Shown here: positions 16,301 through 44,560 of the stretch, piece by piece | Layout: each line of letters starts with the position of its first letter | How positions within the stretch are numbered: the stretch's first letter is position 1 | Assembly: GCF_003334305.1 (NCBI RefSeq) | Contig: NZ_QOWS01000023.1 | Reading direction: 5' to 3' (one strand) | DNA from: Escherichia coli | GTDB taxonomy: Bacteria > Pseudomonadota > Gammaproteobacteria > Enterobacterales > Enterobacteriaceae | DNA length: 64,000 nt | The notes under the pieces: model-generated | What the model was told of the DNA's origin: nothing | Seen by the model: only the letters and a program-made list of their open reading frames with translations | The model's database searches: none | Made by a program: the position numbers and the translations under genes

Positions 16301-16306
16301 CTCATA

Positions 16307-18391: not shown

Positions 18392-18430
18392 AACGATAGT
18401 TTTGTGTCAGATACTGAAGATGGCGCAGAT

Positions 18431-18460: not shown

Positions 18461-18537
18461 CTACATGACGTTGCAATTTATTGAATATGAATGATTTTTT
18501 AGGCCAAATAAGGTGCGCAGCACCGCATCCGGCAACG

Positions 18538-20700: not shown

Positions 20701-20783
20701 TGGCACCGCCGCGTAAAAATAGGTTGGGCGGAGAAGCGCAACGCCCTCCGCCAAAAAGCTGGGTATATATACAGATTTGCTGA

Positions 20784-23921: not shown

Positions 23922-23957
23922 CATTTACTCCAATCACGCGGGTACAGAAACTGACTT

Positions 23958-24161
23958 TTAGTAATTCACCTGGGATGGACCATCGCCAGTGGCGCGATCG
24001 TTTTTATCCGGCACCGTGGATTGCGTTTGCGTCTCTACCGGTTTGGTCGGCGGCGGTGCCTTTTTATCTGCAGGCGGGAAATAGAGCGGACCTTTCAGAC
24101 CGCAGCCCGTCAGGCTGAAGAGAGTAATTAATACAGTGAGTGCCTTAAACACGTTTTTCAT
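23958..24161 (-). CDS. yifL: small lipoprotein YifL (67 aa)
   Basis: ORF MKNVFKALTVLITLFSLTGCGLKGPLYFPPADKK... with LTGC lipobox. Confidence 0.8.
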   Translation of the reverse strand: MKNVFKALTVLITLFSLTGCGLKGPLYFPPADKKAPPPTKPVETQTQSTVPDKNDRATGDGPSQVNY

Positions 24162-24240
24162 TATGGATTGCCTGTAAAGTTCATCGCTTTCTGCTTTCTA
24201 TCATCGCAGGAGAAGGCGTAAAAGCAAGCGTTTAGCGACT

Positions 24241-24410
24241 CTTTATGAAGTCTGAAAAGTGAGGAAATGCTGCGAGTATAACGCTTACTCGTGGGGATTT
24301 ATGTTTTGCTGGTAGTTTCGTGATCGGCACCTCGCGCCAGGATGGCTCTATGCACTATCGCAATGTAGTTTGTTTGTTGGCTTGTTCGTTGTTCTTATCG
24401 TCGGCATGGA
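24241..24410. repeat. ~170-bp direct repeat, copy 1 (promoter-like leader plus truncated signal-peptide mini-ORF)
   Basis: Aligns by eye with 25324-25493 at high identity; contains ATG-initiated MHYRNVVCLLACSLFLSSAWSF* (22 codons) ending in a stop. Confidence 0.7.
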
Positions 24411-24510
24411 GCTTTTAAAAGAGTGGCGCACCATGCAATTTTGTTGTCTGACCTTAGTCGCCAGTGACATACAACTTTGCCAACCTGGTGATAAGAGGGA
24501 ATAAAATCTG

Positions 24511-25065
24511 ATGGGGCTATTTACCCAACTGGAAAAATTTGACCAAAAGCTTACGCGCGGTTATGCCCGGTGGGGGCGCTGGGTATGGCGGACGTTAATT
24601 GTCGTTCCGGTACTGGTCGTGTTGTGGAATATAGGACAGGCAGTATGGGGAGGACCAAGAGGTGGAGTGATTCTGGAAATCCACAGTGAAATTGACCGTC
24701 CGATACTGGGATTCAGTGTTAACGGCGTGGCGGGCGCGAATGCTTTTGCAAATGGTGGCGGTTCAATCACCTGTTGTGGTGATGTCAGTGGGGATACGGC
24801 AGAGGTTATCTGGACATTAGATATGACTCACGAGCAATATCTTAAAGGGATGCGTCTGGAGAAACGTAACAAGACTTTGCCTCTCCCAAAAAGAGAATGG
24901 GGAGAAAATTATCTGCATGTGCATTTTATGCCTGGCGATAAAGTGCTGCTGGGGTGGAGTAAAGATTCTTTTTCTCCGTATGAAGATCTTCACAACGGGG
25001 GGTACAAGACCCGCGTTCGGCAGGATGTGAAAGATAAACTTTATGGTACAGGGAAAATGAATTGA
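24511..25065 (+). CDS. hypothetical membrane-anchored protein (184 aa)
   Basis: ATG at 24511 preceded by aagaggga Shine-Dalgarno; N-terminal hydrophobic segment WVWRTLIVVPVLVVLWNIGQAVW; GGGSITCCGD motif. Confidence 0.6.
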   Translation: MGLFTQLEKFDQKLTRGYARWGRWVWRTLIVVPVLVVLWNIGQAVWGGPRGGVILEIHSEIDRPILGFSVNGVAGANAFANGGGSITCCGDVSGDTAEVIWTLDMTHEQYLKGMRLEKRNKTLPLPKREWGENYLHVHFMPGDKVLLGWSKDSFSPYEDLHNGGYKTRVRQDVKDKLYGTGKMN

Positions 25066-25323
25066 TAGATTTCTATAAAAATCACGTTCGGCAGAAAGCG
25101 TAATAATGTGGCGAATGTTAGATACCGGTGGTGGGACCTGAATACAACACGCGAAAGACAATAAAGTAGGTAACGGTGGGCAGAGTCGCATGTTGAAACC
25201 CTTCCCGGCGTCAATCCGGCACATTTTAACGTGATCAGTCACACCATGGCGCAGTACCTCGTATTTATATCGTGAATGAAAACCTCAAGTTTACACCAGC
25301 AACTATCAGAAAATAGCGATGAC

Positions 25324-25493
25324 CTTTATGGATTCTGAAAAGTGACGATTTGCTGCGAAAGTTACGCTTACGTGCGGAGATTTATGTTCTGCTGGTAGTT
25401 TCGTGATCGGCACCTCGCGCCAGGATGGCTTTATGCACTATCGCAATGTGGTTTGTTTGTTGGCTTGTTCATTGTTCTTATCGTCGGCATGGG
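25324..25493. repeat. ~170-bp direct repeat, copy 2 (includes the start of the 492-aa ORF)
   Basis: Aligns with 24241-24410; here the signal-peptide reading frame continues into a long ORF. Confidence 0.7.
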
Positions 25494-26911
25494 GATGTCG
25501 GCTTGATGCGCCTGAACATAATATTTACCAGAAACAGGGAAAAGGCGTGGTGTACCTGCGCCCTTATAAAGAAACAAATCTTTCTCTTCCTGACGTGAAT
25601 TACAAAAGTTTGCGCCGTTTACCCAATTTATTAATAGACCCGACAACACTAGACAAATGGGATAAAGTACCTCCTCTGACTGATCTGACAACCGACTACC
25701 TCTATGAAGGCGCACAGGCCTGGTATCCTCATTACTCCTGGCATAGCGATGGTCGCTATATCCTCTACGCGGGTGAAGTTGTGCAAAACCCGCCAGACAA
25801 ACCTCCCGTCGATGTCGCCTCGTTCAAGGCGTGGGGTGATTTTGCCGCAGATAAACACAGTCTCTATTTCGAAGGCAAGCGCACCGATAACAATGGCGGG
25901 GGAAATCGCTTAGATATCAAAACACTGCATCAGGTGGAATTCCGGCCTCCCTGGGATCCTGACTTACTGGGGCTGATATTACGTGACGCTAATTTCTTGT
26001 ATATCAATGGGCATCGCCTCGCAGATCCCGATAGTTTCCGTGTGCTGGCACAAAAGTCATGGGATCAGCGAGGAAAGTTTTCTACCGCGTTTAATCCCTG
26101 TGTGGCTATGCCATTTGGCCCCTGGGATACCCTGGCTCGTACACGGACCAAAATCCTGATCAACGGCGAACAGCTTGATGCCGACCCGGACACCTTTTCC
26201 GTCGTGCGCTGGATGCCCGGCTCACTCTTGACCTGGCGTGATAAAAACGGGCTGCAGCGTAAAGTCCTCGACAAGGAAAATCTGGAGTGGGATGAAGATT
26301 TAACAAAGCACTGTCTGGATTTTTCTCTGCTGGAAAAGAAAGTGTTCTGGCGTAAAGGACCTGCTTGTAAACAGGAAGAATTACCCGGACTCGATCCGGA
26401 GCAGTTTCAACCCATCAGTGATGCTGTCGCCCAGTATCAGGACTCGCTTTATACCATCATCGAAACAGAGTCTGGTGACCGCAAGCTGGAAATCGTGAAA
26501 CTTGATGATCCCAATCTTATTATCAACAAACGTTTCAACGCCGGGAAACGCCACGGCTATTTACTTACGCGTGCCGAAGGGTGGCCATACCATTCCGGTT
26601 TACATGTGTTTGAATCTGACGGACCGCTGATCTTACTGGATAACCGTTCTCCGGATGAACGCGAAGCCCATCTTAATGACCATCCCTTTTTGCGCAGATG
26701 GTATGCCCGCGATAACCGCTACATTTACAGCTTTGATGGCGCGCAGCTCTGGCGATACCGCACCGCTGATCCGAAACAAGTTCGCTTAATCTGGAAGGAA
26801 CAACATTCGGGATATGGCTATGGCGTAAATTACAAAACGGGATATCTGGACGGAAAAATTACTGATGACGGCGAATTTATTCCTGCCCCGCGCAATGAGG
26901 CGACAAAATGA
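25433..26911 (+). CDS. hypothetical exported or lipoprotein repeat protein (492 aa from ATG 25433; ORF track starts 25403)
   Basis: N-terminus MHYRNVVCLLACSLFLSSAWGC... signal/lipoprotein-like; internal recurring AD-x-D-[ST]-F and D-K-x-x-L-Y-F-x-G motifs; paralogous to the next ORF. Confidence 0.7.
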   Translation: MHYRNVVCLLACSLFLSSAWGCRLDAPEHNIYQKQGKGVVYLRPYKETNLSLPDVNYKSLRRLPNLLIDPTTLDKWDKVPPLTDLTTDYLYEGAQAWYPHYSWHSDGRYILYAGEVVQNPPDKPPVDVASFKAWGDFAADKHSLYFEGKRTDNNGGGNRLDIKTLHQVEFRPPWDPDLLGLILRDANFLYINGHRLADPDSFRVLAQKSWDQRGKFSTAFNPCVAMPFGPWDTLARTRTKILINGEQLDADPDTFSVVRWMPGSLLTWRDKNGLQRKVLDKENLEWDEDLTKHCLDFSLLEKKVFWRKGPACKQEELPGLDPEQFQPISDAVAQYQDSLYTIIETESGDRKLEIVKLDDPNLIINKRFNAGKRHGYLLTRAEGWPYHSGLHVFESDGPLILLDNRSPDEREAHLNDHPFLRRWYARDNRYIYSFDGAQLWRYRTADPKQVRLIWKEQHSGYGYGVNYKTGYLDGKITDDGEFIPAPRNEATK

Positions 26912-28233
26912 AGGGTCAAATAATCACAGTTGCACTCATCCTGTTGGGACACACATTTCTGACGCCTGCTGTACAGGCCATAGGGTTCGACTATTACAAT
27001 GATCACGGTGTTATGTCTTACGGTAAAGGTTATTGGGGGGATAAGAAAATCATTGCCCAATTTCCGAAGATGAACAGAGCCGATTTGCGCCTTGTGACAA
27101 ATATATCCGGGGAGCGGGAGTTGGTGGAAGGCTATATACCCACCGATGAAATAAGCATAAAAAATGAGGAATACCACTGGGTGACAGACGGCCGCGTTAT
27201 TCTCTGGCGTGGCAAAATCGTTAGCAATCCACCGGGAACACCCACTGTCGATATTGCCAGCTTTCAGGCTATGGGCCGCTTCGCGGTCGATAAATATAGC
27301 CTCTATTTTGACGGACAGCGCACCGAAAGTAATAGCGGCGCGTCACGTGTTGATCTGGCGACACTAAAAGCTATCGAAGGTAACTCTACCACGCTGGTGG
27401 ATAGTAAAAATCTCTATTTGTCCGGTCGACGTCAGGGGAGCAGCAGTAATGTTACTGTATTAGAAAAAAGATGGTGGGGTATTAATCCACGTCTTATGAG
27501 TGTAAACAGAAATTTGTATTCCAATGATCTGCTTATCCGCAGTGGGCAGAATATTTATTTAAATGGCGTTCACCTTACGGCGAATGCAGACTCATTTGAG
27601 ATAATTCGCTGGATACCTCATTCACTGCTGGTTTTTCGCGACAATAAGGGTATGCATCGTTATCCCTTTGGGCAATTGTCTGGCAAAGCGATACCCGTAG
27701 ATGATGACGTCTCTTTTGAAGTAGGGGAAAGTCGCGTTCGCTGGCGTAAACAGCTCACGTCCGACCGTCAGTGGAGCAAGTGGATAGACCTACCAGATAT
27801 TGAACCTGAACAATTCCATCTGATTACTGGCAATATTGCGCAATATAAAGATCGGCTGTATGTAACAAAATTATCGACATTTGGTGAAGACCAGCTTGAG
27901 ATAATCCCGCTGGATACGCCAGACCTGGTCATTGATCGCTCATTTAATAGCGGCAAACAGCATGCTTATTTTATCCGCCAATTACGGTCAAAGAGCGTGC
28001 AAATTATTCCAGTTAACGGTCCGCTAACTAAAAACGATCGCTTCGCTTATGACGATCGCAATGTTTATACATGGACCGATACAGAGGTAAGGATTACGCC
28101 CTCCCCCTGCCCGGCGAAAACACACGTCAGAGAAGAGAATGTGCGTGAACTTCACAACAGAGACATTATTATTCCGTTGACGGATGACTCATGCCGGAAC
28201 GCAGCAACAGACGGGCAAACTTTGAAGCCCTGA
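26908..28233 (+). CDS. hypothetical secreted repeat protein (441 aa), paralogue of the upstream ORF
   Basis: N-terminal signal peptide MKGQIITVALILLGHTFLTPAVQA; shares conserved blocks with the 492-aa protein (e.g. NPPGTPTVDIASFQAMGRFAVDKYSLYFDGQRT vs NPPDKPPVDVASFKAWGDFAADKHSLYFEGKRT); ATGA start/stop overlap. Confidence 0.7.
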   Translation: MKGQIITVALILLGHTFLTPAVQAIGFDYYNDHGVMSYGKGYWGDKKIIAQFPKMNRADLRLVTNISGERELVEGYIPTDEISIKNEEYHWVTDGRVILWRGKIVSNPPGTPTVDIASFQAMGRFAVDKYSLYFDGQRTESNSGASRVDLATLKAIEGNSTTLVDSKNLYLSGRRQGSSSNVTVLEKRWWGINPRLMSVNRNLYSNDLLIRSGQNIYLNGVHLTANADSFEIIRWIPHSLLVFRDNKGMHRYPFGQLSGKAIPVDDDVSFEVGESRVRWRKQLTSDRQWSKWIDLPDIEPEQFHLITGNIAQYKDRLYVTKLSTFGEDQLEIIPLDTPDLVIDRSFNSGKQHAYFIRQLRSKSVQIIPVNGPLTKNDRFAYDDRNVYTWTDTEVRITPSPCPAKTHVREENVRELHNRDIIIPLTDDSCRNAATDGQTLKP

Positions 28234-28280
28234 CCCCATACCGCTATACTGCCGCCATCACTTAAAGACAGGATACAACA

Positions 28281-28601
28281 ATGAACGACAGTGAATTTCA
28301 TCGCCTGGCTGATCAACTCTGGCTGACCATTGAAGAACGCCTGGACGACTGGGATGGCGACAGCGATATCGACTGCGAAATCAACGGCGGCGTACTGACC
28401 ATTACCTTTGAAAACGGCAGCAAAATCATTATTAACCGCCAGGAGCCGCTGCACCAGGTGTGGCTGGCAACCAAACAGGGCGGCTACCATTTTGACCTAA
28501 AAGGCGATGAGTGGATTTGCGATCGCAGCGGCGAAACCTTCTGGGATTTGCTGGAACAGGCGGCGACGCAGCAGGCGGGTGAAACAGTCAGTTTCCGCTA
28601 A
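28281..28601 (+). CDS. cyaY: frataxin homologue CyaY (106 aa)
   Basis: [66 protein letters not shown]... recognised as CyaY. Confidence 0.95.
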
Positions 28602-28640
28602 GATTGCATGCCGGATAAGCCTCGCTTTCCGGCACGTTCA

Positions 28641-31187
28641 TCACGAAAAATACTGCTGTAATAGCGGCGTATCGTGATCCTGATTGGCAGGCGGCATGTT
28701 ACCGATAGATTTTGTGCGGAACGGAATCACCTGTTCACGACCATCAACCTTCACAATCTGATAGAACTGCGGCAGGTTGAAGTTGATGAAGCTTGAGCCG
28801 TAGGTAAAACGGTCATGCGATGACGAGTAGAAGCGACTGACGTCACGTACCAGCTCCTCTTTGCTGCCTTCGCAGTGGTGATACACCTCAACCCGGTTGC
28901 TTTCGTCGAGAATGTAGATATTAAAGCCATTCTCGTCTTGCGTTTCTTCGAAAAAGAACTGGATGATCCCTTCGCTGGCAAAGCCGTCCACCACCGCCGG
29001 TAATTTGACGTGATTGGTTTCAACCTGCACTGACAGGCCGTGCAGTTTGTTATGCGAAATCGCGCCATAAAACTCGATGGCGTTTTCCAGTTTCTGTACC
29101 GATACATTCAGGCGTTCGAAGAACAACCCCCAGGTTTGACCAGAAACGCGCAGCGCCTTGAAACGCCCGGTTTCCTGGCGGGTGCTGGAAAGGCGCAGTT
29201 CAATACACTCAGAAACCAGTTGCTGCACGCGAGTACGGATTAAGCCGCGCAGATGCTGGCTATAACAGAAGACTTCCACGCTATCTGGCGGTGCGGCGTC
29301 CTGATGCATTTTGCCGAGAATAGTTTTCAGGGCTTCGATCATCGATTGCTCGCCGTTGAAGTGCAGCGTACGCACTTCGTTCCACGAGTTGCGGTACAGC
29401 AGGTCAACGCTACCTACCAGGCAATTTTGATTCTCGCCAAAGCTGAAGACATCCAGCTTACGGAAATCAAAATGCACCACCTGATTGCGGAACGCCGCTG
29501 TCGGGTCATATTCCAGGTTAACGATAATCGCCAGATGGCGGATCTCACACGGGCTGTAGAGCGCCTTCGGTGTCGGTGCAGGTAAGCGCAGCGGGAAATG
29601 GTGCGACACGTCGGCGACCATCTCCTGCAACTTAGGCAAATCGACAATGCCGTTACCTTTAATATACAAACGGGTGCGCGAGGTCAGCAGGCCGTTAAAC
29701 CATGCCCACGCCACCAGTTTGTTCAGGTAACGGTTATATTCCAGCGGCTGATGGCTGATGATCGACTCAATATTTGGCGCGCGGTTATACAGATACCAAC
29801 CTGAACGGTTAGCACGGCCCGGCGGCACATAAATAAAGGTCAGATTCGGTTCCGAGAGATCGGGTGAAATCTGCGGGTTTACCAGCGTCACTTTACCTGG
29901 TAATGCTTCAAACGCGGCATACAGCTTACGCGTCAGCACGCCGATATCCTGCGGACTGGCGGAGACGCTAAGGTTATTGCGACGCGCAAAGCGGATCAGA
30001 TTACGGTAGCTCTGCATCATCGCGTCGAGCAACTCGTTGTGCGCCTCACGCACCTGATCAATCTTCCAGTTAGCGCGGTTATCGAGCATTGCCAGACGAG
30101 CTTCGTCCCAACCCCACTCGCTCACTAACTGGCTCAACACTGCGCGACGCCAGCCTACGCAGGCGCGTTCACGGCTGAGCTTTTCGCACACTTTTAAATA
30201 GAAGCAGCGACGTACTAAATCCAGACGGGTAAAATCTTCAATCGCCGTCAGGTATTCAGTAACACGCTCCAGCATCATGCAGTATGGATCGAGACCAAAC
30301 GATACAATCTCGCCGTCGTGCAAACGCTGTTTGATATCTTTCGCCAGCAGACGTGGGTTCGGGTATTCCCAGGAATAGGCTTCCAGCAGCAGTGTTTTCA
30401 GTACCGCTTTGTATGGGGAATCGATACTCTTGTAGAGCTGCCAGAGGCTGGCACCAAAGTACTCTTCAGCAGAAAGCGAGCTTAAGCCACCGAGATCCAG
30501 CCATTCATTTGGCGTCAGCACGCCCTGCGCGTAAAGCGTCATCACATAGTCGTCGTAATGCTCTTCTTCGTCGCACGGCACCATATTCCACAGAATACGC
30601 TTACCGGCGAGACGCACGGCGGTACGATAAAATTCGTCAAGCAGCAGTATATGCTGGGTGGAGCCACAATCTTCGCCCCCCAGGCTGCCGCTTTCATTAT
30701 GACGGAAGCGGTTTTCATCAATCAGGAAGAAGCTGACTTCCACACCCAGCGAGGCGGCCCAGCTTTCCAGCAGACTACATTTACGTTGTAGTAACTGGCG
30801 CTCTTCGCTATCGAGCCAGGATTGATGACAGACCCAGATATCCAGGTCAGAGGAACAACTTTGCCCTACGGACGAGGTGCTGCCCATGGTGTATACACCA
30901 GTAATTGGAAGCTCACCTTTCGGTGGGTCCTGTACTGACATTCCACGATACAGTTCAAGCTCGTTCAGGTAGTGGCGTTGAGTTTCATCAGGCGTGTAAA
31001 GGCAAATGCCTTTGGGAACGTTACCATCAAGGTAACCCGGCATTAGCGGATGGTGATAGTGCAACAATGTCGGCAGTAGACTGTAGACCTGTTGGAATGC
31101 AGGCCCCATAGCAGCAAGCGCGCGATCCACACGCAATTGATTTATGGCATCCAGTCTCTGTTTCAGAGTCTCAATATAGAGGTACAA
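28641..31187 (-). CDS. cyaA: adenylate cyclase (848 aa), TTG start
   Basis: 848-aa ORF beginning (TTG)[46 protein letters not shown]...; I recall cyaA using a UUG start in E. coli. Confidence 0.96.
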
Positions 31188-31573
31188 GACGTATCGCCTG
31201 ATTTGCTACCCGTCATGACTGTGATTCCGCCAACATCAACGGTAACACGCGGCATTCGGGATATTTCGTATGTCAAAGGTAACCGTTACCACTTTTCGCG
31301 CCTGGTTTTTTTAGTTTCACGACGAAAAAATGGTCTAAAACGTGATCAATTTAACACCTTGCTGATTGACCGTAAAGAAAGATGCGCTACATACAAGTGT
31401 AGCACCGTTTATTCTCTGTAAATTCCTTATTACGACGGCGTGAAACGCCTGTCAGGATCCACTGCCAGACCTCATTTTACGGTTTGCGCAGGCGTCTACG
31501 TTTCACCACAACACTGACATCACTCTGGCAAGGATGTTAGGATGGACCACGGATGATAATGACGGTAACAAGC
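31188..31573. promoter_or_regulatory. cyaA / hemC divergent promoter region
   Basis: 386-bp divergent intergenic region; individual promoters not resolved. Confidence 0.4.
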
Positions 31574-32515
31574 ATGTTAGACAATGTTTTAAGAATTGCC
31601 ACACGCCAAAGCCCACTTGCACTCTGGCAGGCACACTATGTCAAAGACAAGTTGATGGCGAGCCATCCGGGCCTGGTGGTTGAACTGGTACCGATGGTGA
31701 CGCGCGGCGATGTGATTCTTGATACGCCGCTGGCGAAAGTAGGCGGAAAAGGCTTATTTGTAAAAGAGCTGGAAGTCGCGCTCCTGGAGAATCGCGCCGA
31801 TATCGCCGTACATTCAATGAAAGATGTGCCGGTTGAATTCCCGCAAGGTCTGGGGTTGGTCACTATTTGTGAGCGTGAAGATCCTCGCGATGCCTTTGTG
31901 TCCAATAATTATGACAGTCTGGATGCGTTACCGGCAGGCAGTATCGTCGGGACGTCCAGTTTACGTCGCCAGTGCCAACTGGCTGAACGCCGCCCGGATC
32001 TGATTATCCGCTCCCTGCGCGGCAACGTCGGCACTCGCCTGAGCAAACTAGATAACGGCGAATACGATGCCATCATTCTTGCCGTAGCCGGACTAAAACG
32101 TTTAGGTCTGGAGTCCCGCATTCGCGCCGCGTTACCACCCGAGATTTCTCTTCCGGCGGTAGGACAAGGTGCAGTCGGTATTGAATGCCGCCTTGATGAT
32201 ACGCGCACTCGCGAGCTGCTTGCCGCGCTGAATCACCACGAAACTGCACTGCGCGTTACCGCAGAACGCGCCATGAATACCCGTCTCGAAGGTGGATGTC
32301 AGGTGCCAATTGGTAGCTACGCCGAGCTTATTGATGGTGAAATCTGGCTGCGTGCGCTGGTCGGCGCGCCGGACGGTTCGCAGATTATTCGCGGTGAACG
32401 CCGCGGTGCGCCGCAAAATGCCGAACAAATGGGGATTTCGCTGGCAGAAGAGCTACTGAATAACGGCGCGCGCGAGATCCTCGCTGAAGTCTATAACGGA
32501 GACGCCCCGGCATGA
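31574..32515 (+). CDS. hemC: porphobilinogen deaminase (313 aa)
   Basis: ORF track 31553-32515; ATG at 31574 gives [34 protein letters not shown]... Confidence 0.95.
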
Positions 32516-33252
32516 GTATCCTGGTCACCCGCCCGTCTCCCGCTGGAGAAGAGTTAGTGAGCCGTCTGCGCACACTGGGGCAGGTGGCCTGGCATTTTCC
32601 GCTGATTGAGTTTTCTCCGGGTCGACAATTACCGCAACTTGCTGATCAACTGGCGGCGCTGGGGGAGAGCGATCTGTTGTTTGCCCTCTCGCAACACGCG
32701 GTTGCTTTTGCCCAATCACAGCTGCATCAGCAAGATCGTAAATGGCCCCGACTACCTGATTATTTCGCCATTGGACGCACCACCGCACTGGCGCTACATA
32801 CCGTAAGCGGACAGAAGATTCTCTACCCGCAGGATCGGGAAATCAGCGAAGTCTTGCTACAATTACCTGAATTACAAAATATTGCGGGCAAACGTGCGCT
32901 GATATTACGTGGCAATGGCGGTCGTGAGCTAATTGGGGATACCCTGACAGCGCGCGGTGCTGAGGTCACTTTTTGTGAATGTTATCAACGATGCGCAATC
33001 CATTACGATGGTGCAGAAGAAGCGATGCGCTGGCAATCCCGCGAGGTGACGATGGTCGTTGTTACCAGCGGTGAAATGTTGCAGCAACTCTGGTCGCTGA
33101 TCCCACAATGGTATCGTGAGCACTGGTTACTACACTGTCGACTATTGGTCGTCAGTGAGCGTTTGGCGAAACTCGCCCGGGAACTGGGCTGGCAAGACAT
33201 TAAGGTCGCCGATAACGCTGACAACGATGCGCTTTTACGGGCATTACAATAA
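32512..33252 (+). CDS. hemD: uroporphyrinogen-III synthase (246 aa)
   Basis: [37 protein letters not shown]...; 4-bp overlap with hemC. Confidence 0.93.
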
Positions 33253-33273
33253 CTCTCATAACAGGAAGCCATA

Positions 33274-34521
33274 ATGACGGAACAAGAAAAAACCTCCGCC
33301 GTGGTTGAAGAGACCAGGGAGGCCGTGGACACCACGTCACAACCTGTCGCAACAGAAAAAAAGAGTAAGAACAATACCGCATTGATTCTCAGCGCGGTGG
33401 CTATCGCTATTGCTCTGGCGGCGGGCGTCGGTTTGTATGGCTGGGGTAAACAACAGGCCGTCAATCAGACCGCCACCAGCGATGCCCTGGCTAACCAACT
33501 GACGGCATTGCAAAAAGCCCAGGAGAGCCAAAAAGCCGAGCTGGAAGGCATTATTAAGCAACAAGCTGCACAGCTTAAGCAGGCGAATCGTCAGCAAGAA
33601 ACGCTGGCAAAACAGTTGGATGAAGTCCAACAAAAGGTCGCCACCATTTCCGGCAGCGATGCTAAAACCTGGCTGCTGGCTCAGGCCGATTTTCTGGTGA
33701 AACTCGCCGGACGGAAGCTGTGGAGCGATCAGGACGTCACGACCGCTGCAGCGTTGCTGAAAAGTGCAGATGCCAGCCTGGCGGATATGAATGACCCGAG
33801 TCTGATTACCGTTCGTCGGGCAATTACCGATGATATCGCCAGCCTTTCTGCAGTTTCGCAGGTGGATTATGACGGCATCATCCTTAAGCTTAATCAGCTT
33901 TCAAATCAGGTAGATAACCTGCGTCTGGCCGATAATGACAGCGATGGTTCGCCGATGGATTCCGACGGTGAAGAGCTTTCCAGTTCCATCAGCGAATGGC
34001 GTATCAATCTGCAAAAAAGCTGGCAGAACTTTATGGACAACTTCATTACGATTCGCCGTCGTGATGACACCGCCGTACCGCTGTTAGCGCCAAATCAGGA
34101 TATCTATCTGCGCGAAAATATTCGCTCTCGCCTGCTGGTCGCAGCACAAGCTGTACCGCGTCACCAGCAAGAGACTTATCGCCAGGCGCTGGAGAACGTC
34201 TCCACCTGGGTACGTGCTTACTACGATACTGATGATGCCACCACCAAAGCGTTCCTCGACGAGGTAGACCAGTTAAGCCAGCAAAATATCTCGATGGATC
34301 TTCCGGAAACCCTGCAAAGCCAGGCGATGCTGGAAAAACTGATGCAGACTCGCGTGCGTAACCTGCTGGCACAACCGGCAGCGGGGACAACGGAAGCTAA
34401 ACCTGCACCTGCACCTGCACCTGCACCTGCACCTGCACCTGCACCTGCACCTGCACCTGCACCTGCACCTGCACCTGCACCGCAAGGTGATACTCCGGCA
34501 GCCGCGCCGCAAGGAGAATAA
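33274..34521 (+). CDS. hemX: HemX family membrane protein with C-terminal Pro-Ala repeat tract (415 aa)
   Basis: [54 protein letters not shown]... ending ...[14 protein letters not shown]...[12 protein letters not shown]. Confidence 0.9.
34401..34480. repeat. (ACCTGC/CCTGCA)n hexanucleotide tandem repeat, ~13 units, in-frame inside hemX
   Basis: Read directly: acctgcacctgcacctgc... over 80 bp encoding the (PA)n tract. Confidence 0.95.
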
Positions 34522-34523
34522 CC

Positions 34524-35720
34524 ATGCTAAAAGTGTTATTACTCTTTGTTTTGCTGATTGCGGGGATAGTGGTTGGCCCGATGATTGCCGGTCATCAGGG
34601 TTACGTGCTGATCCAGACTGACAACTACAATATCGAAACCAGCGTCACGGGCCTGGCGATTATTTTGATTCTGGCGATGGTAGTGCTGTTTGCCATTGAG
34701 TGGCTACTGCGGCGGATCTTCCGCACAGGCGCACACACCCGTGGGTGGTTTGTCGGACGTAAGCGTCGCCGTGCCCGTAAGCAGACCGAACAGGCGCTGC
34801 TGAAACTGGCGGAAGGCGATTATCAGCAAGTTGAAAAGCTGATGGCGAAAAATGCCGATCACGCGGAACAACCGGTGGTGAACTATCTACTGGCTGCCGA
34901 AGCCGCGCAACAACGTGGTGATGAAGCACGCGCCAACCAACATCTGGAACGCGCAGCAGAGCTGGCCGGCAATGACACCATTCCGGTAGAAATCACCCGT
35001 GTACGTCTGCAACTGGCCCGTAATGAAAACCATGCTGCACGCCACGGCGTGGATAAGCTGCTGGAAGTTACGCCACGCCATCCGGAAGTATTACGTCTGG
35101 CGGAACAGGCGTATATCCGCACAGGTGCATGGAGTTCTCTGCTGGATATCATCCCATCAATGGCGAAAGCCCATGTTGGTGATGAAGAACATCGTGCAAT
35201 GCTGGAACAACAGGCATGGATTGGCCTGATGGATCAGGCGCGTGCCGATAACGGTAGTGAAGGTTTGCGTAACTGGTGGAAAAACCAAAGCCGGAAAACG
35301 CGTCATCAGGTAGCGTTGCAGGTGGCAATGGCGGAACATCTTATTGAATGTGACGATCATGATACTGCCCAGCAAATTATCATCGATGGCCTGAAACGCC
35401 AGTACGACGATCGCCTACTGCTGCCGATTCCTCGACTGAAAACCAACAATCCGGAACAGCTGGAAAAAGTGCTGCGCCAGCAGATCAAAAACGTCGGCGA
35501 TCGCCCGCTGTTGTGGAGCACACTGGGCCAGTCACTGATGAAGCACGGAGAATGGCAGGAAGCATCGCTCGCCTTCCGCGCGGCGCTGAAACAACGTCCG
35601 GACGCCTACGATTACGCATGGCTTGCCGACGCGCTGGACAGACTGCACAAGCCGGAAGAAGCTGCAGCGATGCGTCGCGACGGTTTGATGTTAACGTTGC
35701 AGAACAACCCACCACAGTAG
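34524..35720 (+). CDS. hemY: HemY family protein with TPR-like repeats (398 aa)
   Basis: ORF MLKVLLLFVLLIAGIVVGPMIAGHQGYVLIQTDNYNIETSVTGLAIILILAMVVLFAIEWLLRR... Confidence 0.93.
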   Translation: MLKVLLLFVLLIAGIVVGPMIAGHQGYVLIQTDNYNIETSVTGLAIILILAMVVLFAIEWLLRRIFRTGAHTRGWFVGRKRRRARKQTEQALLKLAEGDYQQVEKLMAKNADHAEQPVVNYLLAAEAAQQRGDEARANQHLERAAELAGNDTIPVEITRVRLQLARNENHAARHGVDKLLEVTPRHPEVLRLAEQAYIRTGAWSSLLDIIPSMAKAHVGDEEHRAMLEQQAWIGLMDQARADNGSEGLRNWWKNQSRKTRHQVALQVAMAEHLIECDDHDTAQQIIIDGLKRQYDDRLLLPIPRLKTNNPEQLEKVLRQQIKNVGDRPLLWSTLGQSLMKHGEWQEASLAFRAALKQRPDAYDYAWLADALDRLHKPEEAAAMRRDGLMLTLQNNPPQ

Positions 35721-35767
35721 TTCCTTCTCACCCGGAGGCAAGCACCTCCGGGACCTTTCTGATGCAT

Positions 35768-35974
35768 AAAAAAACGCCTGCTCTTATTACGGAGCAGGCG
35801 TTAAAACAGGTCTGTATGACAACAAGTGGGTGCTTCACTCAACGTTGTGTCCATGGTGTCTGATGAGGCATAAGCGACATCTGTCAGTGGACGATAAGCA
35901 CCGTAAACGGCTCTGCGTCATTCCGGAGTTTATGAGGCACTAAGGCGAACATAAGAGATGGAATGAGCATCTAC
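35768..35974 (-). ncRNA. glmZ: small RNA GlmZ
   Basis: Reverse complement reads GTAGATGCTCATTCCATCTCTTATGTTCGCCTTAGTGCCTCATAAACTCCGGAATGACGCAGAGCCG...GCCTGCTCCGTAATAAGAGCAGGCGTTTTTTT, which matches the GlmZ sequence as I recall it, including the intrinsic terminator. Confidence 0.85.
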
Positions 35975-36398
35975 CCGTTTATTATGCCACAGAGAATCGG
36001 GAAATAACATCCCTTAACACTTGTTATGAGATAATTCTGTAATCCTCTTTGCTTCCTGAGTAATAACTTCCTGAGTGAATATTTAACCTGAGCTTGATCC
36101 TACACATACTTATTATGAATGATAAAATTCATTCAATTAATAACACATATATTAATTGCCGTTAAAACTAAAAAAAGCATCAATAATCAACGCGATATAA
36201 TAAACCTGCCTTACATATCAACTGCGCCAGAGGTAGGATTGAAAACGCTCTCCTGATTTTCCAATTCATTTTCTGGATAAATAAATAATTTATTTTTGTC
36301 ACTATTATTTATGTAATCATCCTGTCAGGGAGAGGGATCTCAATTATCAATGCTTAATTACGTCATCATTTTGATGACATGAAACCGGAGCATTTTGC

Positions 36399-36560
36399 AT
36401 GGAATTTTCGTTTTCACCCAAACTTCTTGTTGTTGCTGTCGCCGCCGCTCTTCCTCTCATGGCCAGCGCAGCAGATACCCCGTCAACTGCCACCGCACGC
36501 AAAGGCTTTGCCGGATACGATCACCCAAACCAGTATCCACAGAACGCTGCAATTTATTGA
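36399..36560 (+). pseudogene. aslA: probable 5' remnant of arylsulfatase gene aslA (53 codons, signal peptide then premature stop)
   Basis: ATG-initiated [53 protein letters not shown]; sits where aslA is in K-12 (convergent with aslB, divergent from glmZ), but only ~160 bp precede the aslB 3' end. Confidence 0.45.
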
Positions 36561-36577
36561 ATTTGCACGATCATGTA

Positions 36578-36608
<31 letters not shown>

Positions 36609-36643
36609 AATCAACCGCAGGCGGCCACAAAATGGCCGCTTTT

Positions 36644-37879
36644 TTACTTATTCACCACCAGCAAATGTGCCTGCATAATGTCACTGGCCGGGCGACCGTG
36701 CGCCAGCAAATCAGCCATTGCTTTAAGATATGGCGGTAGATGGCGGAAATAACGCTGATACCCGGCACACAAATAATTCAGCCCCGGTTTGCCGCTGGCA
36801 TCGAGCATGAAGCGGTGTTTCGGGCAGCCTCCCCAGCACGCTTTTAACACGTTACAACTGCGACACTGCGCCGGTAATTGCTTAAATTTATCTTCACCAA
36901 ACACCTGCTGTTGCGGGGAATCGATCATTTCTGCAATTGTTTGCTGATGCATATTCCCCAGCCGATATTGCGGATAAACATAGTGATCGCAGGCGTAAAC
37001 GTCGCCGTTGTGCTCAACAATCACCGAGCGCCCACAGGTTGGCTGATGATGGCAAACCGCACCCGGCGCACCGACAAAATTGGCAAACGCCCATTCGATA
37101 TTCATCACGAAAATCTTGCCGACGTCGCGTTTGATCCAGTGGTCGAATATCGCCACCAGAAATTCACCAAATTCATCGGGGCGCACCGACCATTCCTTCA
37201 GTTCCCCCTGAATATCACCAGGCGCATGTAGTTTCAGTCCATCGCTGGCAGCTGTTTCATCAGCCAGGCGCTCGACCACCGGAATAAACTGGATGAATTC
37301 GACTCCCGCATCGCACAAAAAATCATAAACCTGCAACGGTTGCTGCGCGCTGGTGCGGTTGACGCAGACCAGCACGTTATAGTCGACATGATGTTTTTGC
37401 AGCAGCGTCAGGGCACGCATCACCAGCTTATGCGTTGGTCTGCCACCTTTGGTCACGCGATATTGATTGTGGATCTCAGCCGGACCGTCCAGCGATAACC
37501 CAACAAGAAAATGATTTTCTGCCAGAAATGCACACCATTTATCATCGAGCAGCACGCCGTTAGTCTGGAAGCTGTTACTTATCTTCCTGCCAGCACCGTA
37601 TTTCGCCTGTAACTTTACGGCACGGCGGTAAAAATCCAGCCCGAGTAACGTTGGTTCGCCGCCCTGCCAGGTAAAAGCCACTTCGTTTTGCGGTTCGCTG
37701 GCAGCGATATAGTGACGGACATACGCTTCCAGCGTGTCATCGTCCATATGCGTGACTGGCTTTTCGCGGTAAAGGGATTGTTTTTCGAGATAAAAACAGT
37801 AGTCACAGTTCAGATTACAATCGGAACCACTCGGTTTCGCCATCACATGAAAAGCACGCGTTGGAACCTGTTGCAGCAT
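36644..37879 (-). CDS. aslB: anaerobic sulfatase-maturating enzyme homologue, radical SAM (411 aa)
   Basis: ORF track 36644-37909; ATG at 37879 gives MLQQVPTRAFHVMAKPSGSDCNLNCDYCFY... with CxxxCxxC radical-SAM motif. Confidence 0.85.
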   Translation of the reverse strand: MLQQVPTRAFHVMAKPSGSDCNLNCDYCFYLEKQSLYREKPVTHMDDDTLEAYVRHYIAASEPQNEVAFTWQGGEPTLLGLDFYRRAVKLQAKYGAGRKISNSFQTNGVLLDDKWCAFLAENHFLVGLSLDGPAEIHNQYRVTKGGRPTHKLVMRALTLLQKHHVDYNVLVCVNRTSAQQPLQVYDFLCDAGVEFIQFIPVVERLADETAASDGLKLHAPGDIQGELKEWSVRPDEFGEFLVAIFDHWIKRDVGKIFVMNIEWAFANFVGAPGAVCHHQPTCGRSVIVEHNGDVYACDHYVYPQYRLGNMHQQTIAEMIDSPQQQVFGEDKFKQLPAQCRSCNVLKACWGGCPKHRFMLDASGKPGLNYLCAGYQRYFRHLPPYLKAMADLLAHGRPASDIMQAHLLVVNK

Positions 37880-37990
37880 GGTCACTCCTTGCCTGAAGTC
37901 ATCCTTCAATACGTTAAGGGCGAAATCATACCGTGGGGCAATGAGTTATTACGGGCGTTTATTGCGAAGGGAGGGTGACGAAATGCACAG

Positions 37991-38018
37991 AAAACAAAAA
38001 ACCCCGCCGAAGCGGGGT
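37991..38018 (-). terminator. rho-independent terminator of the argX-hisR-leuT-proM tRNA operon
   Basis: ccccgccgaagcgggg hairpin followed on the minus strand by a T-run. Confidence 0.6.
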
Positions 38019-38025
38019 TCAAAAT

Positions 38026-38102
38026 TGGTCGGCGAGAGAGGATTCGAACCTCCGACCCACTGGTCCCAAACCAGTTGCGCTACCAAGCTGCGCTACTCGC
38101 CG
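38026..38102 (-). tRNA. proM: tRNA-Pro (anticodon UGG)
   Basis: Reverse complement CGGCGAGTAGCGCAGCTTGGTAGCGCAACTGGTTTGGGACCAGTGGGTCGGAGGTTCGAATCCTCTCTCGCCGACCA. Confidence 0.93.
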
Positions 38103-38144
38103 AAATACTGCTTTTTGAATTTTTAGTTCAATTCTTTAAAGTCG

Positions 38145-38231
38145 TGGTGCGAGGGGGGGGACTTGAACCCCCACGTCCGTAAGGACACTAACACCTGAAG
38201 CTAGCGCGTCTACCAATTCCGCCACCTTCGC
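38145..38231 (-). tRNA. leuT: tRNA-Leu (anticodon CAG)
   Basis: Reverse complement GCGAAGGTGGCGGAATTGGTAGACGCGCTAGCTTCAGGTGTTAGTGTCCTTACGGACGTGGGGGTTCAAGTCCCCCCCCTCGCACCA. Confidence 0.93.
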
Positions 38232-38251
38232 ATTGTCACAACTTCTAATAA

Positions 38252-38328
38252 TGGGGTGGCTAATGGGATTCGAACCCACGACAACTGGAATCACAATCCA
38301 GGGCTCTACCAACTGAGCTATAGCCACC
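38252..38328 (-). tRNA. hisR: tRNA-His (anticodon GUG)
   Basis: Reverse complement GGTGGCTATAGCTCAGTTGGTAGAGCCCTGGATTGTGATTCCAGTTGTCGTGGGTTCGAATCCCATTAGCCACCCCA. Confidence 0.93.
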
Positions 38329-38385
38329 ACTACAAATCTTGTTACGCGGTATTACTACCACCGCAGCTCAAGCGCCGGGACTAAA

Positions 38386-38462
<77 letters not shown>

Positions 38463-38564
38463 TTAGCGCCGTTGCGGGGGTGGATAATACGGACTTCCCA
38501 CCCCTCTGTCTAGTCCCTTTTTAAATAAATTGCGCGTTTGGTTACGGTTTGTGCGTTTTGCTGC

Positions 38565-39950
38565 TTATTCCTCCAGTTTATGCGCTTTCCCGTGGCGATT
38601 AAGGCCAAAAACTTTATAAATCGCCGTCACCGCCAGCATAAAGATGATGCCAACAAACAGCGACATACGCGTATCTTCATTAAAGTACATGCCGATCAAA
38701 ACGCAAATCAGGAATGCCATTGTTACGTAGTTGGCCCACGGGAACAGGATTGAGCGGAACGGATGGCTGGCAATCGCCGCTTTATGTGCACGCCGAAAAC
38801 GCAGCTGGCTTATCAATATCACAAACCATGGCACCATCCCCGGAAGCACGCTGGCACTGTAGACGTAGACAAACACACGCTGCGGATTGGGAATGATGTA
38901 GTTCAGGCATGAGCCAATTAGCAGAATAGCAATAGATACTGCCACACCCGCAACGGGTACGCCGTGACGGGAAACTTTCGCCATCGCCGCCGGTAACTGA
39001 CGGTTTTTCGCCAGTGCGTAGAGCATACGTCCGCAACTGTACATGCCGCTGTTACAGCCAGAGAGCGCAGCCGTCAGCACCACAAAGTTGATAATGCCCG
39101 CCGCTGCGGTAATACCGATTTTGGCAAAAGTCAGTACGAACGGGCTGCCGTTGCTGCCTATTTCATTCCACGGGAAGATGGTGACGATAACGAAAATCGC
39201 GCCTACGTAGAAAATCAGGATCCGCCACAGCACCTTGCCTACGGCACTGCGCAGCGTCACCTGCGGATTCTTCGCTTCACCGGCAGTAATGCCAATCAGC
39301 TCCACGCCCTGGTAGGACGCCACCACAATACACAGCGCGGTCAGGAACCCTTTCCAGCCACCCGCAAAGAAACCGCCATGCTCTGTGAGATTGCTAAAAC
39401 CAATCGACTGCCCGCCATTGCCAAAGCCAAAGAAAATCACGCCCAGGCCAATGACAATCATCACGATAATCGTGGTGACTTTGATCATCGCGAACCAGAA
39501 CTCGATTTCGCCGTACAACCGCACCGCCGCCAGATTCGCCAACGCCACCAGCGCCACTGCGATCAATGCGGGTATCCACTGCGCCATCTCCGGGAACCAG
39601 AACTGGACATAAACGCCAATGGCGGTGATTTCTGAGATCCCCACCGCCATCCACATAAACCAATAAGACCAGGCGGTGAGATAACCAAAGAACGGGCTCA
39701 TATAACGATGCGCATAAACGGCGAACGAACCGGTAACCGGTTCGAGGAACAACATTTCGCCCATTGAACGCATGATGAAAAAGACGAATAGCCCGGCGAT
39801 GATATAGGCCAACAATACGGATGGCCCGGCCCATTTCAAGGTACTGGCGGCCCCCATAAACAGGCCGACGCCAATGGTGCCCCCCAGGGCGATGAGTTCG
39901 ATATGTCGAGCTTCCAGCCCACGCTGTAGCTCTGGTTTGTTATCTGCCAT
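38565..39950 (-). CDS. yifK: APC-family amino-acid permease YifK (461 aa)
   Basis: 461-aa polytopic [39 protein letters not shown]... Confidence 0.9.
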
Positions 39951-40140
39951 AAATCCTCGTGTTGTGTTTGCATGCTTTCCGGTGTTACCGGTTATCGTTA
40001 TGGGTACATCGAGTGTTGCGAATGTTTTCGTAATTCAGGAGAAATGGCAAATAAAGCATTAAAAATTTGAATGCTTTGTGTAATAAAAAAGCAGGCAGGC
40101 GACGAAGTGACCACTCCGTCGCTTTACAAAGAGAGGAAAA

Positions 40141-40881
40141 TCAGAGGTTGCCGGTGTAGTGCCAGCGTAAATAACGCAGCAAACGAAGCTGACGCTTAAT
40201 GCGGCTCGGCTGCGAAAGCAGGCGGTAGAGCCACTCCAGTCCCAGCGTTTGCCAGATTTTCGGTGCGCGTTTTACGTGACCGGTGAAAACATCGTAAGTC
40301 CCGCCAACGCCCATATACAGCGCATCTGGATGCACCAGACGGCAGTCGCGCATGAAGATCTCCTGCTTTGGCGATCCCATCGCAACGGTGACGATTTGCG
40401 CTCCGCTGGCATGAATGCGTTCAAACAGCGCCTGACGCTGCTCGGGTTTAAAATAACCATCCTGACTGCCAACGATATTCACATTCCATTGGTTGCGCAG
40501 TTTAGCTTCAGTTTGCGCCAGCACTTCAGGTTTACCGCCCACAAGAAATACCGGCGTCCCTTCTTTGCCTGCGCGCGCCATCAGCTCTTCCCAGAGATCG
40601 GCACCGGCAACGCGGGAAACCTGCGCCTGCGGGTACTTTTTACGTACTGAACGTACAACGCTGATGCCATCCGCATATTTAAATTCGGCAGCGTTAATTA
40701 ACTCCCTGACCTCGGCGTTATCTTCAATGGTCAGCATTTTTTCGGCATTAATGGCAACCAGCGTTCCCTGCTTAAGCTGCCCGTCAGCAAACAGATAATC
40801 GAGGGCGTGCTGCATATCACGCCAACCAATCAACTGTAAGCCACGCAGCGTATAGGTCGGTGCCGTGGTGTTGTTATTCAT
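40141..40881 (-). CDS. wecG: UDP-N-acetyl-D-mannosaminuronic acid transferase (246 aa), ECA biosynthesis
   Basis: [51 protein letters not shown]...; last gene of the wec cluster. Confidence 0.9.
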
Positions 40882-40883
40882 TG

Positions 40884-42236
40884 TTATCCTTCAACCTGCG
40901 TCCGGAGCGATGATTTTGTACGTTTATGAATGAGTCCGGCGCTTTCAAAAAGCCAGTACAACAGTTTTGCGATCATCAGACATGCGCCGAAGACCACGAT
41001 AAAAAAGACTACGCGTGAGACAAACGAATCCAGCCCTTCACGTGCCAGCACGATCATATTGAAGATCGCCCCAAAGCAGAAACTGTGCAATATCGCAGCC
41101 TTATAGCGATTAGTCTCGCGGTTGCCCAGCTCATACAGCCAGTCGAACCATTTGATGATCAGTCCAACCACAATCGCCCCGAGTGGGATGAACAACGCGC
41201 CGCCCATCACCACCAGTGAGCCTATAAGCGTAGGCGAGATCGCCAGTCCGGAGTGGTTATTCAGCACTTCCCAGGTAAAGTAGTTGGCTGAGTTCAGCAC
41301 CATACTCGGGCGACCCGGCCACAGCCAGGAAGGGATAAAGACATAGAAATCGCGGACAATTGGAGCCAGGCCCTGGAAGTCGATGTTGTCGTAGTTCTGC
41401 AACAGCAACGCCAGATTCTCCCATGGCGAGAAGGTGTCGCGAGTGAGATAGAGAAACGTATAGAACGCTTCATCGCCGCTCACATTCATTCCATAGCGTT
41501 TTAGCGCCAGCCAGAACATGCCCACAATCCCCAGCACGCCCGCCGCCGCCAGCATCCACAACGAAATCCAGCCGCGAATAATGCCAATAAACAGGAAGAT
41601 AGCGAATGCGATGATGATATTGGCGCGAGTGCCGCCGACAATCATATAAGTCAGCAAGCCAAAGGCGACCGTGCTGACGAGGAAAAACAGCCACGCTTTG
41701 CTATCCTGGCGCAGAAAGTAGACCACCAGCATCGCCGGGATGAAAAAGTAAAAGAAGCGTTTTAACGCCACGCCGGAGACTTCACTGGAGAAGATCTGAC
41801 TGTAGGAGTTAAGCCGGAACAGCAAAAAGCCGTTGTGCATGAAGAAGATGCCGACGCTTACCAGCGCGATGCCCATCAGGATCACCCACGTAAGATTGGT
41901 CTCCACGCGGTTCATGGTAAACAGCGGACGGCGCGGTACATCAGCAACGCGTTTGCGTAGGCGGGTTTTGTAGGTGACATAGTAAACCGCGTAGAAGCAG
42001 CCCGCAGAAAGCAACGCCTGCAACAAGATTTCTGGCGGCGCGACACCAACATCAAAGCGAAATACCAGCACGCTGGTCAGCGGGAAGCCGAAGAAAAAGG
42101 TGAGCAAAAACAGCAATGAAAAGAAGACATTGAAGTTAAAGCGCACACGGCGAAACTCAAACCAGGTCAGCGTGGCAATAAACAGCGTGCAGAGCAGCCA
42201 GACCACAAACAGGCCACTGAATTGCAGCAGACTCAT
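40884..42236 (-). CDS. wzyE: ECA polymerase (450 aa)
   Basis: 450-aa polytopic ORF in the conserved wec cluster position. Confidence 0.88.
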
Positions 42237-43312
42237 GCGCCCTCCCCGGCGGCAATCGCCAACGCCCGCTGCCAGCCTTGTAGATAGTTAGGGCTAAAGA
42301 AGGCAATGGTGTTTTTATCCACCGACGCCAACTGGCGCTGCGCTTCACGCACAATATCCTCGTTGAGATCGTCGGTAGTAAACAGCACTGGCAAATGCTG
42401 TTCCGTCATATCCTGCCAGAACGGATTTTCCCGGTTAAGCACACAAGGAATGCCCGCCTGAATCAGTAAGCACAGCGTACCAATGCCCTGCTGGCGAGCA
42501 AAAATAAAGTAACCAAGATCGCACTGACGAAGTAGCGCCAGATAGGCGTCAAATTCCAGTTTTTCGCTCAAAATTTGCAGATTTTCTTCGCTGAATAACT
42601 CCAGCCCCGCCTGACGAACTTCCTCAATGTACGCTTCGTTATTAGGCGGATATCCCATCGGCACCACCACTTTTACCGTATCGCCAAATTGCTGATGAAC
42701 GGCACGTAAAGCGGCGACATGCTCATTGCTGAGGTCGCCGGAGTTCCCCACCAGAATGGTCATTTTTCCTTCACGTTGCCGATCGTTCGCCATCGTATTG
42801 AGAGAAGGGTCCATCCGCGTCGGGAAGTACAGCAGTTCTCCCCGCACCTTTGGGTGCGTTTTGGCAAAAAAGCTCAAATCGCCGCGGGTGGCAAATACAC
42901 AGCCGACTCGCTTTTGCGCCAGGCGACGTAGTGGGTAAAAAAGCTTATATCTCAAGCCACTGGAAAGCTCATACAGGTCTGCCCCCCAGATATGCCAGAA
43001 AAACTGGCTGGGCTTAATGCCACCACTCAGCAGAGCCAGCCACAGTGTGGGATTGAACTGACCGTGGAAAAAAAATCGCTGCTGACGGTTAGCTTTTGCT
43101 TTCGCGATGACCGCTTCCGCCAGCGATTTTTTCCCAGGGAAAAATTGCACAGAAAGCGCCGGACAGCTATCACTTAAGCCGTCGTCCTTGCCAACAACCA
43201 TAAACTCGCGCGCGTGCTCGCTCGTCGCAGCCAGCGCGTCATTGAAAAACCGCAAAACGGTTCGGTTATGGTGAGGGATATCCGATCCCAGTACGTGAAT
43301 CAGTACAGTCAT
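42233..43312 (-). CDS. wecF: TDP-Fuc4NAc:lipid II 4-alpha-fucosyltransferase (359 aa)
   Basis: 359-aa [49 protein letters not shown]...; synteny. Confidence 0.88.
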
Positions 43313-44559
43313 GCCCGCCTACGCCAGAGTAAAAACACGCCACAACAAAGAGAAAAATAGACGATATAAGTTGCCATATATGCCTGCGCCGCGCCCAGTG
43401 CACCATGCGCAGGGATTAGCCAGTGGGCAAATACCATCAATAAAGTGAACTGGCTGATTTCCGCCAGAATATAAAACCGCAATGACGCTTTGGCGATCAC
43501 CAGATAACCAAAGACATAAGCGCCCACTTTTAACACATCACCCACTAACTGCCAGGCAAAGAGATCGCGCATAGCGGTAAATTTATTCGACAACAGCAGC
43601 CAGATAGCAAAATCACGCAGCAGCCAGACGGTAAAACTCGCCGCCGCCACTGCCGGTAAGACGAATTTCAGCGATTTAACCACTTCCCGGGTGATATCGC
43701 GCTTTTCCGTTAGCCGCGACAACGTGGGCAGCAAATATACGCTGAACGATGCCGTAATAAATTGCAGGTAGGCATCGGAAATACTGCTCACCCCTTGCCA
43801 GATCCCCACTTCATCCCAGCTATACTGCGCCGCGAGCAGTTTACGCATCATGATGTAAGCAACAGGCAAGGTCACCGACGTAATCAACGCCATGAGCGTA
43901 AATTTGCTCAACTGCCCTGCCAGACCGTTATCCCAGCTGGGTTTCAGATAGCTTAACGGGATGACACCACGTTTGATCAACATGATGGCGGCAGGAATCA
44001 CCACCAGCGCGGGAATCAGCGCCAGACCCAGCAACGCCCCTTCATAACCGCCCAAACGGTAACTGACGTAGTACGCGAGAACGCCAATCAAGCTGCCGAC
44101 AATCAGCGATAACGCATTACCTGCGGCATCGCGAAAGCCTTTCATCAGCGCCAGTAACAGGTTGCCCCAGGCGATCCCCATTTGCACCAGCGCCACTAAA
44201 CGCACCAGCCCCTGATAGTCGGTATTACCAAACAATCCCTGGCTGATTGGCGCAGCTGCCAGCACAAAAACCAGCGCCATCAGCGTAGAGAAACCAAGTA
44301 CCATCGCTGATGAAGTGCCGACCACGCGGCGCAGCTGTTGCGGATTATCATGGTACTGGGCAACGTATTTGGTTACACCGTTAAAGATGCCAGCTCCGGC
44401 AAGCACGCCGAGCACGGTAATCAACTGGCGGAAATTTGCCGCCAGCCCAAGCCCCGCCGGACCAAATGACACAGCCAGCAACTTACCGACCAGTAACCCG
44501 GCACCAATCTTGACCAGTGTACTGGCCGCCGTCCACAAGGACGCTTTTGCCAACGACAT
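43309..44559 (-). CDS. wzxE: lipid III flippase (416 aa)
   Basis: 416-aa polytopic [41 protein letters not shown]... Confidence 0.88.
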
Positions 44560-44560
44560 A

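Follow-up and report, generated by a model that had tools for sequence, protein, structure and literature searches.

Among the described systems closest to a short tandem repeat within a coding region, the contingency loci of Haemophilus, Neisseria and Campylobacter have a repeat unit that is not a multiple of three nucleotides or a repeat within a promoter spacer, and they switch surface or restriction-modification genes on and off. At the protein level, Ala/Pro-rich segments such as the linkers of the E2p lipoyl domains, the OmpA hinge and the Pro-rich region of TonB join two folded or functional parts. Among typing markers, the generic E. coli MLVA of Lindstedt et al. 2007 and Løbersli et al. 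2012 (GECM-7 / GECM-10) contains the locus CVN014. This scheme includes CVN014 as a locus with a 6-bp unit, for which the primers are given in Table 1 of PMC8143711. CVN014 has been described as more variable than any other locus of the generic scheme; within a Swedish ESBL collection no other locus varied as much (PMC5217547), and alleles 2 to 11 were present among ST131 isolates (PMC3407997). The MLVA loci STTR5 and STTR6 of Salmonella Typhimurium also have 6-bp units and are described in PMC5183578 as fast epidemiological clocks that are more variable at mid-high copy number.

Here we analyzed a hexanucleotide array near the 3' end of hemX in a 64-kb stretch of E. coli DNA (the window) and compared it to these systems. 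No structural difference was apparent between CVN014 and the array of the window, which share the same 6-bp unit and the 111-bp non-repeat offset. STTR5 and STTR6 resemble it as in-frame 6-bp arrays that change by whole units, while they reside in other genes of another species, and hemX of Salmonella carries no PA array. With contingency loci the array has in common that it is a putatively hypermutable simple-sequence repeat in or beside a gene and would change by slippage. In contrast to them, its 6-bp unit keeps the reading frame in all observed alleles, no promoter-like site was found at the array, and HemX is an inner-membrane product of a housekeeping operon that belongs neither to the surface and host-interaction proteins nor to the restriction-modification systems. 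Because on/off switching of the gene is impossible, no phenotype is known and the gene encodes neither a surface antigen nor a restriction-modification function, the term "contingency-like", applied to the array in an earlier note on this DNA, is unsupported. The alternating Ala/Pro residues, which likely adopt an extended non-globular conformation, recall the segments of E2p, OmpA and TonB; those are encoded by mixed codons and connect two parts, whereas the HemX tract is a single reiterated hexamer that joins no two folded domains. As the last predicted helix of HemX ends at residue 366 and the protein stops 13 residues after the tract, with no further folded domain, what the earlier note had called a linker is better described as part of a disordered C-terminal tail.

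The hemX array and the typing marker CVN014

Tandem Repeats Finder detected a single array at 34401..34481 on the + strand, with a period of 6, 13.5 copies of ACCTGC, 100% matches, no indels and a score of 162. This was the sole strong tandem array of the 64-kb window (the runner-up scored 57), and since the run is a perfect 81-bp periodicity, a chance origin within 64 kb is ruled out. The codon listing resolved the array into (CCT GCA)x13 at 34402..34479, encoding (Pro-Ala)13 as residues Pro377-Ala402 of the 415-aa HemX, followed by a non-repeat end of 13 residues (34480..34518, + strand) and the stop codon. The earlier note had placed about 13 copies of ACCTGC/CCTGCA at 34401-34480 and had read them as an in-frame (Pro-Ala)n tract near the HemX C-terminus, and this description is accurate in every point. 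The hemX coding sequence (33274..34521, + strand) was identified as an open reading frame matching NCBIfam PRK10920 (720 bits, cutoff 313) and Pfam PF04375 (E = 4.4e-108, aa 130-363), with the PA tract (aa 377-402) outside the domain. It sits in the hemCDXY operon, and the coding sequence of the 398-aa HemY (34524..35720, + strand; NCBIfam PRK10747, 830 bits) starts 2 nt past the hemX stop codon. The Shine-Dalgarno sequence of hemY (AAGGAG, 34511..34516) lies within the final hemX codons; the end of the array is separated by 29 nt from this site and by 42 nt from the hemY ATG.

Both CVN014 primers matched the window exactly, with 0 mismatches and at a unique position. The CVN014-R site (GCAGCRGGGACAACGGAAGC) was located at 34378..34397 on the + strand and the CVN014-F site (TCCCCGCAATCAGCAAMACAAAGA) at 34543..34566 on the - strand, inside the start of hemY, so that the primers are convergent in the window sequence with one on either side of the array. 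The resulting amplicon (34378..34566) is 189 bp long, from which the published formula gives (189-111)/6 = 13 repeats. The same calculation, (product - 111)/6, returned integers in the other fetched strains that carry the array (2, 5, 7, 13, 13, 14, 19, 21 and 22). Since the primers flank the array exactly and the size formula yields an integer, the hemX array is, on the basis of the primers and the formula as reprinted in PMC8143711, the VNTR CVN014 with allele 13.

A search of the 64-kb window for the other loci of the scheme (CVN001-017, CCR001) found none present. In the open-access literature, a search combining hemX with VNTR or tandem repeat retrieved no paper naming hemX as an E. coli VNTR, and the open-access MLVA papers name the marker as CVN014 only. 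The repeat locus of hemX and its variability are already known, having been in use as a routine E. coli typing marker since 2007, which the earlier note had not recognised. What is added here is the mapping of CVN014 to the disordered tail of HemX, its allele distribution in 5,426 genomes, and the position of the 13 copies of the window within the top 4.3% of lengths.

Copy number among genomes and within identical flanks

The sample consisted of 5,426 complete E. coli genomes, all of which carry the locus, and copy number was inferred from the length of the matched span. This proved exact in 9/9 fetched loci, with 2, 5, 7, 13, 13, 14, 19, 21 and 22 copies. As a first ranking with a short query was not monotonic in copy number, a synthetic 40-copy query, for which coverage increases with copy number, was built and used for the maximum and the quantiles. 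With this query, the lowest copy number was 2, the highest 25 and the median 6, frequencies being indicative only because the collection is not a random sample and over-represents laboratory derivatives of K-12 and clones from outbreaks. The maximum of 25 was that of strain SD134209; the next counts were 23 and 22, and several genomes had 21 or 20. At least 13 copies, the number in the window, were reached by 231 of the 5,426 genomes (4.3%). The quantile sample likewise gave a median of 6, and about one sixth of the genomes, mostly K-12-type laboratory strains, had 2 copies. Overall, counts of 5-7 were the most frequent and those above 13 were sparse, a shape for which either a bias in mutation or weak selection for length could be responsible. 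Independently of this, a systematic sample of 59 genomes contained 14 different alleles (2 to 22 copies, median 6) and gave a Simpson D of 0.906. The variability reported for CVN014 in the literature agrees with that measured here in complete genomes.

The length differences were multiples of 6 in 178/178 tabulated spans, and the same applied to the spans of the two lists obtained with the synthetic query. In each of the 11 sequences with CCTGCA units that were compared (nine other strains, strain A7 and the window), the array formed one pure run, while rare interrupted arrays (PAPAPTPAPAP) exist among HemX proteins. HemX of E. coli K-12 has 393 aa with (PA)2, and 2 copies were present in all K-12 derivatives seen. 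A 1-copy HemX of 391 aa is present in the wider protein collection, and strain NCTC11023 carries a natural deletion allele that lacks both the PA array and the QADT segment behind it. Its HemX has 384 aa, the locus is 27 bp shorter than in K-12, and the left CVN014 primer site has a mismatch. The hemX gene was an intact annotated coding sequence in 10/10 other strains fetched with annotation (A7, which has the sequence of the window itself, was not counted). The expectations of the earlier note with regard to variation thus hold: copy number varies among strains, a 6-bp unit keeps the frame and leaves the gene intact, and the K-12 protein is shorter than the 415 aa encoded here. An identical copy number in all strains, which it had named as the result that would speak against variability, is not what the 5,426 genomes show.

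Variation was also observed between loci that are otherwise the same. Among the best 59 matches to the 6-kb hemC-aslB region of the window (at least 99.9% identical), alleles 6, 7, 8, 12, 13, 14, 19 and 21 were found. Among the matches listed, O157:H7 genomes with 100.0% identical 6-kb flanks had 7 copies (44 genomes), 6 copies (9) or 13 copies (7), and further O157:H7 genomes had 5 and 17. The O157:H7 strain Z570 carries 13 copies and strain 1130 carries 7, and the two have the same sequence across 2,959 bp on the upstream side and 2,961 bp on the downstream side of the array. Change in the repeat is faster than in the DNA that flanks it. A query with an ST131 locus returned 60 best matches that were all identical and had 5 copies; perfect matches rank first, hence this result is uninformative on variation within ST131.

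Isolates from the same source shared one allele, as seen for STEC1589/1590 (both 19) and NWU_1/3/4 (all 13), and for this reason the locus acts as a typing marker and not as a switch. The agreement among same-source isolates and the constancy of K-12 are as expected of a useful typing marker and of stable short arrays, respectively. In practice, counting the (CCTGCA)n units of hemX in an assembly gives the CVN014 allele directly, and where HemX differs in length among strains (384 to about 439 aa), this is an effect of the repeat and not an annotation error. As a discovery, the hemX repeat is ordinary and carries little weight.

The HemX tail and the source of length variation

HemX has a single N-terminal TM helix, followed by a long helix and the HemX domain (aa 130-363); its Ala/Pro-rich tail (aa 367-415) is disordered. 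In an AlphaFold2 model built with 60 diverse homologues (mean pLDDT 81.8), the last HemX helix spans residues 348-366 and residues 367-415 are predicted as coil with a pLDDT of 51-66. Three Lys residues directly precede the TM helix, and by the positive-inside rule the N-terminus would be cytoplasmic and the tail periplasmic. A PDB sequence search with HemX yielded no significant relative (the best E of 0.01 was on the low-complexity tail), and neither did a Foldseek search of the AlphaFold2 model against the PDB (best E = 0.15). HemX is described in the literature as a poorly characterised membrane protein, for which a distant relationship to Mic60 and a conserved partnership with YhcB/ZapG have been reported; loss of hemX is reported to make cells less sensitive to gentamicin (PMC12282077). 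RefSeq records name it "uroporphyrinogen-III C-methyltransferase"; the model is all-helical and membrane-anchored, and no methyltransferase match was found for HemX in Pfam and no fold match in the PDB. The name looks like a legacy misnomer.

Among 133 representatives of the HemX family, the segment after the domain consisted of unrelated low-complexity sequence, its length lying between 0 and over 100 residues, and, judged from these sequences, the tail is conserved neither in length nor in sequence across the family. Tails rich in Ala and Pro were found in HemX of Escherichia, Citrobacter and Salmonella, where the ending "...APQGE" is conserved and the segment before it is not. Copy number in Citrobacter varies too: HemX of C. 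sedlakii contains one, two or three AAP units (394, 397 and 400 aa) and that of the C. freundii complex two to four PA units, so that, as far as these protein sequences go, repeat instability in the tail is not confined to E. coli. Many members of the family end in ...QGE, ...QEG or ...GE. The conservation of "...APQGE" can be explained without a role in the protein because it coincides with the hemY Shine-Dalgarno sequence AAGGAG, which suggests that the C-terminal residues of HemX may be constrained by the ribosome-binding site of the downstream gene.

The length variation is very probably due to replication slippage in a pure hexamer array, with in-frame products in a tail that tolerates different lengths and hence drift. 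Slipped-strand mispairing during replication would produce the length changes, and slipped intermediates may be favoured by the capacity of the repeat to form a weak TGCA.TGCA hairpin. As single-stranded DNA, the array had a predicted folding energy of -17.1 kcal/mol compared to -11.65 for shuffled sequences (z = -2.6); the hairpin is imperfect, consisting of 4-bp blocks split by CC mismatches, and the centroid structure is unpaired. Loops of 6 nt are poorly recognised by MutS-dependent mismatch repair, which may add to the instability of the array. Copy number moves in whole 6-bp units between identical flanks, so that the reading frame and the start of hemY stay undisturbed. Such a process fits the alleles observed, which differ by whole units between conserved flanks and are composed of identical units arranged head to tail. 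Longer arrays would be expected to change faster, and short ones such as the two copies of K-12 to be stable. Codon use points in the same direction. The Pro codon was CCT in 13/13 cases within the array, while outside of it hemX uses CCG in 9/11 and CCT in 1/11 cases. Uniform use of a codon that is otherwise rare in hemX argues for amplification of one hexamer at the DNA level and not for selection on the peptide. The alleles would drift because the tail tolerates any length, and the variation in array length is probably neutral. The array is a good epidemiological marker without demonstrated function.

It is improbable that the variation is instead kept by selection for functional length tuning, with (Pro-Ala)n serving as a stiff extended periplasmic spacer that sets the reach of the conserved HemX end. 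Length matters in other envelope proteins such as Lpp or TonB, and the Ala/Pro-rich tails with a conserved ending in three genera, the separate copy variation of AAP and PA units in Citrobacter, and the reported Mic60 relationship and YhcB/ZapG partnership, which make an envelope-spanning role of HemX conceivable, would all be compatible with such a spacer. The conserved QGE is already explained, however, by the hemY Shine-Dalgarno sequence at 34511..34516, the tails of different family members share neither length nor composition, a single species contains alleles from 0 to 25, with several of them side by side within single clones, and the uniform use of CCT points to a process at the level of the DNA. 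No phenotype linked to HemX tract length was found in a literature search. Even more doubtful is the specific form of this idea in which tail length is a selectable knob for the reach of a Mic60-like HemX across the periplasm, for instance towards ZapG/YhcB or LapA, with niches favouring different lengths and hypermutability being maintained. Were it true, the repeat expansions in Citrobacter HemX would be independent parallels. If tail length did affect the function of HemX, the array would offer a handle on a poorly understood envelope protein; nothing here points there.

A regulatory role, in which the array carries a promoter or modulates hemY by way of mRNA structure, translational coupling or pausing at rare codons, is very unlikely. 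The short distance of the array to the Shine-Dalgarno sequence and start codon of hemY, the status of CCT as a minor Pro codon in hemX and the weak imperfect hairpin that the repeat could form would be in keeping with it. On the other hand, this hairpin would be melted by ribosomes translating hemX, the spacing between the array end and the hemY start is equal in all fetched alleles that carry the array, and one HemY accession (WP_000921791.1) is shared by strains with 0 to 22 copies. Screening of 34200..34700 revealed no promoter-like site, and no terminator-like site was found at the array; with these results and the weakness of the hairpin, a role in regulation was rejected. Assembly or sequencing error in a region of low complexity, where short reads can mis-assemble repeats, has next to no probability as the origin of the copy-number differences and was rejected based on the same kind of variation seen by independent PCR fragment sizing in several laboratories; moreover, even the longest array (about 150 bp) is readily spanned by reads, only complete-genome assemblies were used, and same-source isolates agree. 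Replication slippage in a length-tolerant tail thus remains the preferred reading of the hemX array.

Surroundings of the hem genes in the window

Over 31500..37500, and probably over its whole length, the window matches E. coli A7 (NZ_CP028767.1), a strain from orangutan faeces, with 100% identity. Downstream of hemY, all that is left of the arylsulfatase gene aslA is a pseudogene remnant of 138 bp (approximately 36399..36536) between glmZ (35768..35974, - strand) and aslB (36644..37909, - strand), while O157:H7 and ST131 retain a full aslA at this position. A tRNA cluster consisting of Pro(tgg), Leu(cag), His(gtg) and Arg(ccg) at 38026..38462 (- strand) and a TrxA 5'-UTR thermometer (RF02773) at 55047..55146 (- strand) were both as expected for this chromosomal region.

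Two segments upstream of the hem genes stood out in base composition. An island at approximately 24511..28233 (A7 locus 13012..16734) between lptM and cyaY encodes a DUF3304 gene and two hypothetical genes, and here the GC content was lower (0.474) and the GC skew changed sign. The stretch 12001..16000 (A7 locus approximately 2174..4754), with a GC content of 0.397, lies beside an intact corA and contains a hypothetical gene, a DUF943 gene, a member of the YPO3983 family and a pseudogene corresponding to a corA fragment. This stretch has the look of an insertion acquired by horizontal transfer, with duplication of part of corA. The GC skew of the + strand was negative over most of the window (1..64000; cumulative -0.49), which suggests that hemCDXY, encoded on the + strand, would be on the lagging-strand template and oriented head-on to replication.
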